DNA of 64,000 bases from the NCBI GenBank assembly GCA_038230595.1, contig JBBRMY010000002.1, positions 872-64,871 on the forward strand, in the 5' to 3' direction. The DNA comes from Ignavibacteria bacterium (GTDB lineage Bacteria > Bacteroidota > Ignavibacteria > Tepidaquicellales > Tepidaquicellaceae). A program made the position numbers and the translations under genes. Positions 34,537 through 37,636 of this stretch are shown here, one piece after another (the first letter of the stretch is position 1; each line of letters begins with the position of its first letter). The notes under the pieces were generated by a model. It saw nothing but the letters and a program-made list of their open reading frames with translations, did no database searches and had not been told where the DNA came from.

Positions 34537-35532
34537 TTACTTACTGTTGCTTTCAATTTCTTTTAAGATCCTTGATGCTACATCGAGGGCTGTTCTTCCG
34601 TCTTCCAGTGTAACATATGGCTCAGTATCATTTATAATGCTTTCAATAAATTTCTCAAGTTCGAATTTAAGAGGGTTTATTTCTTCGACTGCAGGCTTTT
34701 CATAAATTATTTTGTGGCTTTTACCGTTATGCTCTATAGTTCCGAAATTGAATCCGGAGTTTTCTTCATCTTTATCACTTAATCTGAAAACTTCAGATGT
34801 GTTGGTGGAAAAATCTACAGAAAGATAAGCGTTTTTTTGAAAGAGTCTCATCTTTCTCATTTTGTTAAGAGATATTCTTGATGCTGTAATATTTGCGACG
34901 CATCCATTCTCAAATTCAAGACGGGCATTTGCTATATCAATCTTATCACTAATTATGGCAACTCCATTTGCAGATATTTTAGTAACAGGTGACTTTACAA
35001 GATTTAAAATAATGTCAATATCATGGATCATAAGATCCTGAACTACAGATACATCAGTTCCCCGTGGATTAAACTGAGACAATCTGTGCGATTCAATAAA
35101 TAAAGGTTTAATATTAAAGTTTTCAAGTGATAGAATTGCAGGATTAAATCTTTCTATGTGACCTATCTGAACTTTAACTTTATGCTTTTTTTCGAGAACT
35201 AATAATTTATCAGCTTCAACTATAGTATCAGTGACAGGCTTCTCAATAAAAGTATTAACTCCTGCTGAAAGTGTTTTTTCTGCAAGCTCATAATGGAATG
35301 AGGTTGGAGTTACTATAATAGCAGCATTTATATTAGCAATAAGCTCTTCAGGAGTATTAAATACTTTTAGAGAGTTTTCTTCTGCTATCTGCTTCATTTT
35401 TTCTGCATCGGTGTCAAAGATACCAATGACTTCAGTGTCTTTTCTTTCGCTGCTGATCTCTTTAAGAAGCTTTAGATGAAGCTTACCGAGATGTCCAATA
35501 CCGAAAATCCCTGCTTTTATTTTTTTGCTCAT
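34537..35532 (-). CDS. Gfo/Idh/MocA family oxidoreductase
   Basis: N-terminal KAGIFGIGHLGKLHLK Rossmann motif and EKP motif. Confidence 0.8.
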   Translation of the reverse strand: MSKKIKAGIFGIGHLGKLHLKLLKEISSERKDTEVIGIFDTDAEKMKQIAEENSLKVFNTPEELIANINAAIIVTPTSFHYELAEKTLSAGVNTFIEKPVTDTIVEADKLLVLEKKHKVKVQIGHIERFNPAILSLENFNIKPLFIESHRLSQFNPRGTDVSVVQDLMIHDIDIILNLVKSPVTKISANGVAIISDKIDIANARLEFENGCVANITASRISLNKMRKMRLFQKNAYLSVDFSTNTSEVFRLSDKDEENSGFNFGTIEHNGKSHKIIYEKPAVEEINPLKFELEKFIESIINDTEPYVTLEDGRTALDVASRILKEIESNSK

Positions 35533-35545
35533 ATTTTATTTTATG

Positions 35546-35572
35546 TCACGCAAAGCTCGCAAAGGCGCAAAG
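35546..35572 (+). repeat. R repeat copy 1 (TCACGCAAAGCTCGCAAAGGCGCAAAG)
   Basis: Internally three CGCAAAG units. Begins 14 nt beyond the Gfo/Idh/MocA start codon, i.e. in that gene's leader on the minus strand. Confidence 0.85.
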
Positions 35573-35612
35573 CATTATTATTAACTTTTATTCAATCAGT
35601 TTCCTTTTTGTT

Positions 35613-35639
35613 TCACGCAAAGCTCGCAAAGGCGCAAAG
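35613..35639 (+). repeat. R repeat copy 2
   Basis: Identical 27-mer to copy 1. Lies 19 nt downstream of the GxxExxY stop on the minus-strand reading. Confidence 0.85.
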
Positions 35640-35657
35640 AATTTTTAAATATTTATG

Positions 35658-36038
35658 CTATAAATTGTTAACTATTCTTTTAATACCATCTTTTAACAAT
35701 TCAACATTAAAATTGATTAAGAGACCTAATTTAATATTTGTTAGTCTCAAATATGTTAATAATATTTTACTATGGACTGGTGCAATAGCTTCAATAGATT
35801 TAAGCTCAATAATAAGTTTATCTTCCACAATTATGTCTGCTCGAAAACCCATATCTAATTTTATTGATTCATAAACAACTGCAATAGAAGGTTGTCTTTT
35901 TATATTGTAGCCAAGCTTAATAAGTTCAAAACAAAGAATTTCTTCATAAACAGATTCAAGTAATCCTGGACCTAGTGTTTTATGTATTTTAAAACATTGA
36001 TCTAGAACTGTTTTTGATAAATCATTTTCTGTAAGCAT
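35658..36038 (-). CDS. GxxExxY protein (PD-(D/E)XK-like small nuclease-fold family)
   Basis: HKTLGPGLLESVYEEILCFEL contains the G-x-x-E-x-x-Y signature. DIIVEDKLIIELK matches the D...E-x-K core. 126 aa. Confidence 0.8.
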   Translation of the reverse strand: MLTENDLSKTVLDQCFKIHKTLGPGLLESVYEEILCFELIKLGYNIKRQPSIAVVYESIKLDMGFRADIIVEDKLIIELKSIEAIAPVHSKILLTYLRLTNIKLGLLINFNVELLKDGIKRIVNNL

Positions 36039-36052
36039 ATTTTATATAATTT

Positions 36053-36079
36053 TCACTCAAAGCTCGCAACGGCGCAAAG
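36053..36079 (+). repeat. R repeat copy 3 (TCACTCAAAGCTCGCAACGGCGCAAAG)
   Basis: 2 mismatches to copy 1. Lies in the leader of the GxxExxY gene. The flanks are also homologous to the flanks of copy 1. Confidence 0.8.
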
Positions 36080-36183
36080 CATTATTAATAATTTTAATAT
36101 ATTTAAAGTATAAATATTAGCCATTTGGCAAATCAAGTTTTTTATGATTACATTTTGTTTTTAAATATTATATAAAAGCTTTT

Positions 36184-36210
36184 CTTTGCGCCTTTGCGAG
36201 CTTTGCGCGA
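36184..36210 (-). repeat. R repeat copy 4, inverted
   Basis: ctttgcgcctttgcgagctttgcgcga is the reverse complement of TCGCGCAAAGCTCGCAAAGGCGCAAAG. Lies just downstream of the CDF stop codon. Confidence 0.8.
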
Positions 36211-36220
36211 GACTGTTTTT

Positions 36221-37636
36221 TTAAATCTTCTTCCCCGGCTCGGCGTGGATGATCACGTTTGAGAGCTTTGGAAATTTGCTTTTCAGCTCGCTGAATATTC
36301 GTGATTCCAAAAGAGTTACAATATCATGAACTTCATCGAATGAAAGCATCTGGTCGAATATACAGCTTAAAGATACTCTGATCTTTCCGTTCGTACTTAA
36401 AATAAATATATCATTTTCAGATAATACCTCAGGCTGACTATCAATTATTTTCTTAATACAATTAATCAGTTCTCCGGATTCATCAGTTATATCAAGAGTA
36501 TCATACACAAGATAGCTTGGCTCATCAATGTGAATTCTAATTTTTGTGATCTCTTTTAGTTCCTGCTTGATCTTGTTTTCAATTTCTGTAACCAGGGTAT
36601 GTGCAGCTGTCAGATCATTCGTGTCCTTTATTTCCACATGAAGCTCAGCAAAAATTTCATTTCCAATTTTGTAAGATATTACATCATGAGATTTAAGCTT
36701 ATAAGAATTTACGATCATCTTAATTTTATCATTAATAGTCTCCTTTGGAGTTTCAACGGGCTCTCCGTGAAGGACTATATCAGCGTTCGGATAAAATGCA
36801 TTAAGTTTTTTTTCTACTACGTCCATTACATTATGAGCTTCTGCAAATGGGATTATCCTGTTAAGATTAATAACCATATCTATAAATATTTTCGACCCTG
36901 AGCTCCGGATCCTTAAATTCTTTATTCCTTCAACACCTTCTATCAGGAGTGTTTCATATTTTATTTTTTCATAGATGCCTGCCGGGACTTTATCAAGAAG
37001 AGAATCGAATGCTTTTTTGAACATTCTAACTCCCATGAATATAATTATAGCTGAAACAGCTAATGCGCTTATGGCATCAGCCTGCTTAAATCCGATCAGG
37101 TATAAAGCCAATCCAATTATCACAACAATTGAACTCATTATATCACTTGTAAAATGCATTGCATCGGCTTCAAGTGCATGCGAATTAGTTTCTTTAGCGA
37201 TCTTGTTCAGCTTTCGCGATCTGTTGACATCAATAAATATAGTAAGTATAAGAGCTCCGAATGTCCAAACCGAAATATTTAATAAACCTGCCTCAGGATG
37301 CATCAGCCTTCTGACAGCTTCATAAATGATATATGCTGTAGTTCCAAACAATACTATAACCTGCATTATTGCAGAAAAATTTTCAATCTTTTCGTAACCA
37401 TAGTTATGACGTTCATCAGGCGGACGAGAAGAATATTGAATAGAAAGAAGAGTGATGATGCAGACGAAAATATCTATTGCAGAATTTATTACTTCTGAAA
37501 GAATTCCAAGACTTCCGCTGAAATATACGGCTGCAACTTTAATAAAAGTTATGACGATCGCAGCTAAAAGTGACTTATAAGCTACATTCAGCTTTTTGCT
37601 TATGATATCTGCCTGATTGGAAGTGTTATTATTCAA
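36221..37636 (-). CDS. cation diffusion facilitator transporter with three tandem cytoplasmic domains
   Basis: 6-TM CDF core (HALEADAMHFTSD) followed by three consecutive CTD-like units of about 75-85 aa ending IVLHGEP / IRIHIDEP / VIIHAEP. Confidence 0.8.
   Translation of the reverse strand: MNNNTSNQADIISKKLNVAYKSLLAAIVITFIKVAAVYFSGSLGILSEVINSAIDIFVCIITLLSIQYSSRPPDERHNYGYEKIENFSAIMQVIVLFGTTAYIIYEAVRRLMHPEAGLLNISVWTFGALILTIFIDVNRSRKLNKIAKETNSHALEADAMHFTSDIMSSIVVIIGLALYLIGFKQADAISALAVSAIIIFMGVRMFKKAFDSLLDKVPAGIYEKIKYETLLIEGVEGIKNLRIRSSGSKIFIDMVINLNRIIPFAEAHNVMDVVEKKLNAFYPNADIVLHGEPVETPKETINDKIKMIVNSYKLKSHDVISYKIGNEIFAELHVEIKDTNDLTAAHTLVTEIENKIKQELKEITKIRIHIDEPSYLVYDTLDITDESGELINCIKKIIDSQPEVLSENDIFILSTNGKIRVSLSCIFDQMLSFDEVHDIVTLLESRIFSELKSKFPKLSNVIIHAEPGKKI

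Follow-up and report, generated by a model that had tools for sequence, protein, structure and literature searches.

Organisation of the locus

The DNA examined here, referred to as the window, is a stretch of 64,000 nucleotides (nt) from the genome of an Ignavibacteria bacterium (GenBank assembly GCA_038230595.1, contig JBBRMY010000002.1, positions 872 to 64,871 of the forward strand). Between the genes for a CDF cation-efflux transporter and a Gfo/Idh/MocA oxidoreductase, it carries a 665-bp cassette with a small gene of the GxxExxY (PDDEXK_3) family and four copies of a 27-nt array. The cassette was inserted into a tight operon junction, and its gene and arrays are linked in relatives and in other phyla. 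On balance, it seems probable that the arrays are the cognate sites of the encoded PD-(D/E)XK nuclease, acting in cis, and that gene and arrays persist and spread together.

All three genes lie on the minus strand, with the CDF gene upstream (36221-37636; TIGR01297, E 2e-67) and the Gfo gene downstream (34537-35532; PF01408, E 1e-25) of the intact GxxExxY gene (35658-36038; 126 amino acids, ATG to TAG). Read in this direction, the stop codon of the CDF gene is followed after 10 nt by array A, the forward arm (36184-36210, minus strand, one mismatch). An AT-rich spacer of 104 nt with only 14% G+C (36080-36183) separates it from array B' (36053-36079, plus strand), a degenerate copy with two mismatches that is inverted relative to the gene and lies just upstream of its start codon. 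Between B' and this ATG is a leader of 14 nt (36039-36052), which resembles the 13 nt before Gfo. Array C', the canonical downstream (inverted) arm, begins 18 nt after the GxxExxY stop codon (35613-35639, plus strand). Beyond a 40-nt spacer (35573-35612), which has no significant similarity to the 3' end of the open reading frame (ORF), lies array D' (35546-35572, plus strand), also inverted relative to the genes. C' and D' are perfect copies. A remainder of 13 nt (35533-35545) leads to the Gfo start codon. The outermost inverted arrays, A and D', form the ends of the inserted block (35546-36210), which has a G+C content of 27.5%.

The 27-mer TCACGCAAAGCTCGCAAAGGCGCAAAG comprises three CGCAAAG units (offsets 4, 13 and 21). 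Four sites of the window match it, compared with none in 100 shuffled sequences. An earlier sequence-only reading of the window had already described these four copies (starting at 35546, 35613, 36053 and 36184) and a GxxExxY gene of 126 amino acids between the Gfo and CDF genes; the copies are present as described, and profile searches match all three genes. The same reading had the inverted copy at 36184 facing that at 36053 across about 105 nt, and the distance is indeed 104 nt. Together, A and B' resemble gene-less doublets found elsewhere in the genome. Four of the 26 array copies of the genome thus lie in a single 688-nt spacer, where about 0.04 would be expected if they were spread evenly over approximately 448 kb of intergenic DNA.

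Insertion into the CDF–Gfo junction

Nineteen relatives from the same family or order were compared, and the N-terminus of Gfo aligns with all of them from residue 1-5; the CDF and Gfo genes are adjacent in 16. The gap between the two genes is -11 to +36 nt in these 16 genomes; in the remaining three, an EamA gene abuts Gfo instead. None of the 19 relatives harbours a GxxExxY gene at this site. In the genome under study, the gap is 688 nt, and the 10 nt (36211-36220) and 13 nt (35533-35545) outside the outermost inverted 27-mers add up to 23 nt, about the size of the native spacer. Since these relatives have no more than 36 nt between the two genes, and 23 nt remain outside the outer arrays, the 665-bp block was inserted into the tight CDF–Gfo operon junction, the empty state of which is preserved in the 16 relatives. 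The G+C content of the GxxExxY gene is 25.7%, compared with 33-36% in its neighbours. The genomes compared are distant, with a Gfo identity of at most 67%. At a second locus, a doublet of arrays lies in a 236-nt spacer of this genome, and the corresponding spacer of one relative measures about 10 nt.

The GxxExxY protein

The only ORF in the block encodes a PD-(D/E)XK protein, for which Pfam and NCBIfam report PDDEXK_3 / GxxExxY alone. The match to TIGR04256 (GxxExxY) covers profile positions 2-116 of 116 (E 3e-40, 137 bits, cut-off 35), and that to PF13366 (PDDEXK_3) is similarly strong (E 8.5e-38, 129.8 bits, cut-off 22). All invariant residues are kept (H19, G23, L26, Y31, D68, E78, K80 and Y96). 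The integrity of the active site, a point raised by the sequence-only reading, is borne out: the name-giving motif (G25-LL-E28-SV-Y31) and the catalytic residues D68, E78 and K80 are invariant in 53 homologues. An AlphaFold model built with an alignment reached a pLDDT (predicted local distance difference test) score of 95. A sequence search of the PDB gave no match and thus no close solved relative. The nearest solved folds are weak matches (E 2e-3 or worse, TM score about 0.47) and comprise Cas4 SSO0001, lambda exonuclease, RecE, Hjc and splicing endonucleases.

The sequence-only reading had stated that GxxExxY genes occur as many scattered paralogues. This does not hold for the genome under study, in which a single GxxExxY gene was found. 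Relatives have 0-9 genes each.

Array copies across the genome

In the 2.98-Mb draft genome (313 contigs, 35% G+C), 26 array copies were counted at up to five mismatches. Six are perfect and six have one mismatch. All 26 are intergenic and have unrelated flanks, and the 27-mer is the commonest phased-triple repeat of the genome. The 22 arrays outside the locus comprise 17 lone arms, two gene-less inverted doublets and one tandem pair; three array pairs of the genome are in the form of inverted doublets. The two gene-less doublets (G000 C3:9346/9483 and C228:1780/1893) have spacers of 110 and 86 nt. Both are laid out like A and B', with a stop codon, 12-24 nt, a forward arm, 86-110 nt, an inverted arm and the next gene. 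They were considered as copies of one miniature inverted-repeat transposable element (MITE), but their spacers are not homologous. The arrays follow a positional rule: 10 of the 26 lie 5-24 nt after a co-oriented stop codon, whereas 5% would do so if placed at random between genes (p 3e-7).

The 27-mer folds no better than shuffled sequences on either strand (z score about 0), and matches to sigma-70-like promoters in or beside the arrays are not above those in shuffles. One such match in D' (TTGCGA-18-TAAAAT) was considered as a Gfo promoter and rejected, as it ends at the Gfo ATG and is too close. The genome has no member of TIGR02436, the family of four-helix-bundle "IVS proteins".

Other small repeats were encountered alongside. 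A second family of phased arrays consists of tandem 8-nt units RATTACGA (e.g. TCGTAATTCGTAATTCGTAATT) at at least six dispersed sites (G000 contigs C26:5646, C29:11851, C149:4163, C171:2718, C187:2796 and C244:736), with no partner gene identified. The flanks of the CGCAAAG arrays at G000 C11:178, C180:2384, C77:9492 and C142:2837 hold further families, among them a hairpin (CCCCGAATGCTTTTATCGGGGAT) and a repeat of the form CGTTGGTG...TTCGATGAATCGAAAC, which implies that such repeats cluster in the same spacers. On the plus strand of the window, an ORF of 132 amino acids (35476-35874) runs antisense through D' and C' (...TQSSQRRKA..., ...HAKLAKAQR...). It is probably spurious, and array-derived peptides of this kind could enter gene calls.

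Linkage of gene and arrays in relatives and other phyla

A set of 40 related genomes (41 with that of the window) was surveyed, and a GxxExxY gene is present in 36 of the 41. Nearly all of 30 GxxExxY loci fetched from the relatives are bracketed by inverted arrays, with the units CACAGAG, CGCAAAG, CGCTAAG, CACTAAG, CACAAAG, CACAGAT and CACTAAT. Analogous short repeats, the presence of which beside other GxxExxY genes the sequence-only reading had left to be checked, thus occur in relatives and likewise in other phyla. The 80 closest homologues stem from Bacteroidota, Planctomycetota, Desulfobacterota, Chloroflexota, Acidobacteriota and others, the best one (76% identity) from a Bacteroidota metagenome-assembled genome (MAG), and their arms consist overwhelmingly of CGCAAAG or CGCAGAG units. 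Paralogues in the window's own relatives are associated with other units (CACAGAG, CACTAAG, CACAGAT and more).

The type of unit follows the type of protein. On a tree of 102 proteins, unit type changes 34 times, compared with 44.9 +/- 1.8 changes after shuffling (none of 1000 shuffles reached 34), and unit positions 2 and 5 are each significant separately. The exact three-unit pattern is missing in 34 of the 40 relatives. At least three CGCAAAG doublets are present in 23 of the 41 genomes, and all 23 have the gene (hypergeometric p about 0.011). Arrays are lacking where the gene is absent: the five genomes without a GxxExxY gene contain 0, 0, 0, 1 and 1 CGCAAAG doublets. The 27-mer might have been a common genome-wide repeat unrelated to the gene. 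It is indeed dispersed in 26 copies, yet it is tied to the gene, because homologues in other phyla share the unit, the protein tree tracks unit type and gene-less relatives are without arrays.

A first indication of where the protein might read its unit comes from covariation. Columns 8, 9 and 12 of the N-terminal helix (window 36003-36017, minus strand) have the highest mutual information with unit position 5. K9 accompanies CGCAAAG, and G or E9 accompanies CGCAGAG, with only three independent contrasts on supported branches. Residues 8, 9 and 12 as candidate determinants of unit specificity are therefore a lead and not a result.

Cassette layouts and expression

Among 110 loci, the commonest layout consists of three forward units, the gene and three inverted units. 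It is strictly realised in 39 loci, and most of the remaining loci vary it by additional arrays. L114, L116 and L117 resemble the locus in the window in that a further inverted array separates the forward arm from the ATG. A degenerate inverted array approximately 13 nt before the ATG is present in the closest homologue (L051), and comparable ones are present at L078, L053 and L055.

Two Ignavibacteriales MAGs show a more elaborate arrangement (L058:1020-1680 and L089:1410-2000). A 60-nt module, composed of an inverted array, 11-13 nt and a forward array, is directly repeated on both sides of the gene, which thus lies between two short hairpins; the host site looks alike in both genomes. In a Candidatus Kapaibacterium MAG (L056:1680-2001), three successive forward/inverted doublets follow the GxxExxY gene within 300 nt, forming a cluster of gene-less hairpins beside it.

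The cassettes lie inside operons. Both neighbours are co-directional with the GxxExxY gene in 61 of 84 loci, and between co-directional neighbours the cassette is in sense orientation 61 times and in antisense orientation six times. With only tens of nucleotides between the ORF and the arms, the gene probably depends on read-through for its expression. In the predicted fold of the read-through transcript, A pairs with D' to form a 27-bp stem enclosing the insert (z score -5.9).

Residence and decay at the CBS–CGL junction

The fate of a resident cassette was followed in 21 genomes of a related genus, at the junction of a cystathionine beta-synthase (CBS) gene and a cystathionine gamma-lyase-like (CGL) gene. 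This junction carries a gene-bearing cassette at L226, L244, L239 and L243, a gene-less doublet at L230, L232, L234, L235, L237 and L246, a lone forward arm at L227, and no array, with a gap of 27-105 nt, at L233, L238 and L242. At L231 (G029:C6, upstream of 137182), this position is taken by another insert, which is about 1.17 kb long and free of arrays. The gene has been lost in most species at this site.

The orthologous cassettes are under purifying selection, with a ratio of nonsynonymous to synonymous substitution rates (dN/dS) of 0.04-0.15. Two species with nearly saturated synonymous sites (dS about 1.8) share exactly the same inverted arm, and this arm is well conserved in the gene-less doublets too. 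In these doublets, the 50 nt before the inverted arm are colinear with the 3' end of the ORF (z score 3.7-4.9). The doublets at this site are therefore internal-deletion derivatives of the cassette.

The duplicated leader

The sequence-only reading had pointed out a similarity of about 60 nt between the leaders of Gfo and GxxExxY. This similarity is confirmed. In segments 35530-35590 and 36036-36096, the side of the start codon has CATATTTTAT in common, 25 of the 27 array bases agree, and the opposite side has CATTATTAWTAA-TTTTA in common, so that the similarity spans the start codon, the array and a further 18 nt or so. Of all 325 array pairs, the pair at 35546 and 36053 has the highest flank similarity (score 25; mean 12.8, standard deviation 2.5; next 20). 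The interpretation given to it at the time, either a footprint of insertion or a leader travelling with the cassette, was not confirmed. Because the ATG of L051 is likewise preceded, at about 13 nt, by a degenerate inverted array, B' is probably old cassette sequence, and the copy before Gfo probably a secondary duplication. The duplication would most simply be accounted for by recombination or gene conversion between arrays. Recombination of B' with D' would remove the gene and leave a doublet of the kind seen elsewhere in the genome.

Interpretation and alternatives

The findings are best accommodated, with somewhat better than even confidence, by a nuclease cassette whose arrays are its cognate cis sites. 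The cassette would be a promoterless ORF in the orientation of the host genes, bracketed by inverted arrays of three phased CGCAAAG units. The encoded PD-(D/E)XK nuclease may bind or cut these arrays, reading them unit by unit as putative cognate sites. The other 22 arrays of the genome could belong to the same family, as relics or as members without a gene, and the single nuclease gene would serve them in trans. PD-(D/E)XK enzymes cut DNA and do not join it. Any spread would thus have to use host recombination or repair after cleavage of an array rather than transposition, and may take the form of homing-like copying between arrays. The simplest view of B' and D', the extra arrays, and of the duplicated 60-nt leader would then be that they are a by-product of array-mediated recombination.

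Several observations weigh against this reading. At the CBS–CGL site, the identities of L244, L239 and L243 to the L226 copy are 97, 88 and 80% for GxxExxY and 96, 87 and 82% for the neighbouring CGL; GxxExxY identity tracks CGL identity, which argues for vertical descent and decay and not for recent hopping. No target-site duplication is seen at the outer ends of the block, where the flanks TTTTATG and GACTGTT hold no direct repeat, nor at other array copies, and no recombinase or transposase ORF lies in or beside the block. No relative above 67% protein identity was found in the collections, a metagenome scan with Gfo gave none closer than 66%, and an exact-protein look-up gave no other contig with the same protein; without a closer relative, the insertion cannot be dated. 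With 313 contigs and a completeness of 93.6%, the draft genome could lack a second GxxExxY copy. For 17 arrays, no partner is present within 250 nt, even at eight mismatches. The spacers of the two gene-less doublets and the A–B' spacer have no mutual homology, and no detectable remnant of the ORF 3' end precedes B', D' or other inverted arms or is found in the doublets of the genome (z score about 0). The conserved linker bases of the 26 copies do not prove recent copying, since linkers are also conserved between species at the CBS–CGL site. To our knowledge, there is no mechanism that copies a bare 27-mer. The mobile mini-cassette without a recombinase, as the sequence-only reading had it, is therefore upheld in part. 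The cassette is inserted and lacks a recombinase, but at the sampled site of the related genus it is inherited vertically and decays, and the term "mobile" holds on long time scales only.

The nuclease may spread its arrays or may serve the host. Its long vertical residence under purifying selection, together with the conservation of the arms, suggests a maintained function; frequent loss, a patchy distribution and relatives across phyla point towards a dispensable, horizontally moving element. The case for the host would be a nuclease system of the Ssn/NTS kind, in which the arrays are marks read by the nuclease to modulate recombination, repair or DNA uptake, the gene has its own sites on either side through descent or for the sake of regulation, and the nuclease propagates neither gene nor arrays. 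The low dN/dS over long vertical descent, the conservation of the inverted arm near synonymous saturation and in doublets, the single gene in this genome and the placement of arrays behind co-oriented stop codons would all fit such a system, and Ssn genes are likewise framed by the repeat they cut (PMC11893778). We nevertheless regard it as unlikely, as the cassette is clearly inserted and its distribution is patchy and crosses phyla. Its loss in most species at the CBS–CGL site fits a dispensable element better, and close relatives have 0-9 genes, each with its own unit.

A role at the level of RNA is quite improbable. The arms would form a stem in the read-through transcript, which would be processed, for instance by RNase III, GxxExxY would act on RNA, and the cassette would thereby be tolerated in operons. 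Processing by RNase III is the fate of 23S rRNA intervening sequences. The predicted 27-bp stem of A and D' is of this kind, cassettes are in sense orientation in 61 of 67 co-directional gene strings, and tRNA-splicing endonucleases are among the weak fold matches. However, the D...ExK triad is of the type of metal-dependent DNA nucleases, the best folds are those of Cas4, lambda exonuclease and RecE, and no such stem can arise from the 17 lone arrays. Ordinary regulatory or terminator-like intergenic motifs, clustered at the gene incidentally, would explain a 27-mer that occurs genome-wide with unrelated flanks and often just after stop codons, but this explanation, already disfavoured, is hardly credible, given that the same units flank homologues in other phyla, unit type tracks the protein tree, arrays are absent in relatives without the gene, four of 26 copies share one spacer, and the 27-mer has neither a hairpin of its own nor promoter-like matches above shuffles.

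If the nuclease-cassette reading is extended to the family as a whole, GxxExxY proteins might be sequence-specific readers and cutters of arrays of phased 7-nt units, with which they would form minimal, self-perpetuating nuclease–repeat elements across bacterial phyla, a PD-(D/E)XK counterpart to REP/RAYT and Ssn/NTS. Such elements would be promoterless, reside in sense orientation in operons, spread by cleavage-triggered host recombination and decay to doublets and lone arms, with residues 8, 9 and 12 setting specificity. As a whole, this generalisation is tentative and rather doubtful.

Comparison with known systems

The cassette shares features with several known systems and is identical to none. 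Repetitive extragenic palindromic (REP) sequences, their doublets (REPINs) and the associated RAYT transposases (Bertels and Rainey, 2011; PMC3116915) show the same combination of a single-copy gene flanked by a repeat that is dispersed extragenically, of singlets and inverted doublets with a hairpin-capable spacer, and of a vertically inherited gene whose type is matched by the repeat type. However, RAYT is an HUH/Y1 tyrosine transposase, whereas the enzyme here is of the PD-(D/E)XK type and has no joining chemistry. A REP is an imperfect palindrome, in contrast to the non-palindromic 27-mer with its three phased 7-nt units, which is present in only 26 copies, mostly singlets.

The Ssn–NTS/SRM system (Chenal et al., 2025; PMC11893778) likewise combines a gene for a small single-domain nuclease with copies of the cognate repeat on either side of it, a repeat that is dispersed, almost always intergenic and directional, and many protein–repeat pairs with their own specificities. 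Its authors themselves note that the repeat–gene–repeat architecture resembles that of an insertion sequence (IS). Ssn, however, is a GIY-YIG nuclease, unlike the protein here, which is matched by PDDEXK_3 / GxxExxY alone in Pfam and NCBIfam. SRMs are hairpin-forming inverted repeats of 20-50 nt (PMC11893778), whereas the arrays here consist of phased direct units without a hairpin. The activity of Ssn has been demonstrated (PMC11893778); the GxxExxY pairing is known here from sequence.

IS elements and MITEs have terminal inverted repeats and intergenic insertion in common with the cassette, as well as gene-less internal-deletion derivatives at the same site, as seen at the CBS–CGL junction, but here there is neither a transposase nor a target-site duplication, and the gene-less copies of the genome share only the 27-nt arms. 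A free-standing homing endonuclease gene would similarly be a small nuclease ORF in an otherwise conserved site, patchy and often lost; the flanking dispersed arrays have no counterpart there, and we know of no cleavage of the empty site for the GxxExxY cassette. It also differs from an integron cassette, since its neighbours are CDF and Gfo with no integrase or attI, and its arrays are not attC-like palindromes.

The function of PF13366/TIGR04256 was listed as unknown in a survey of PD-(D/E)XK proteins in 2012 (PMC3424549). No literature linking GxxExxY, PF13366, PDDEXK_3 or TIGR04256 to repeats was found, full-text searches giving incidental mentions only. The pairing of nuclease and repeat is widespread, and no published description of it was found.

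Significance

PF13366/TIGR04256 is a very large family, and the locus described here offers a simple, testable pairing of a 126-amino-acid protein with a 27-nt array, which has 26 sites in the genome, and the insertion is defined. If the protein does read the array, this would account for a class of intergenic repeats that is common in many phyla. Beside RAYT/REP and Ssn/NTS, GxxExxY and its arrays would represent a third, chemically distinct partnership of nuclease and repeat, and they would open access to many small nucleases that naturally differ in specificity.

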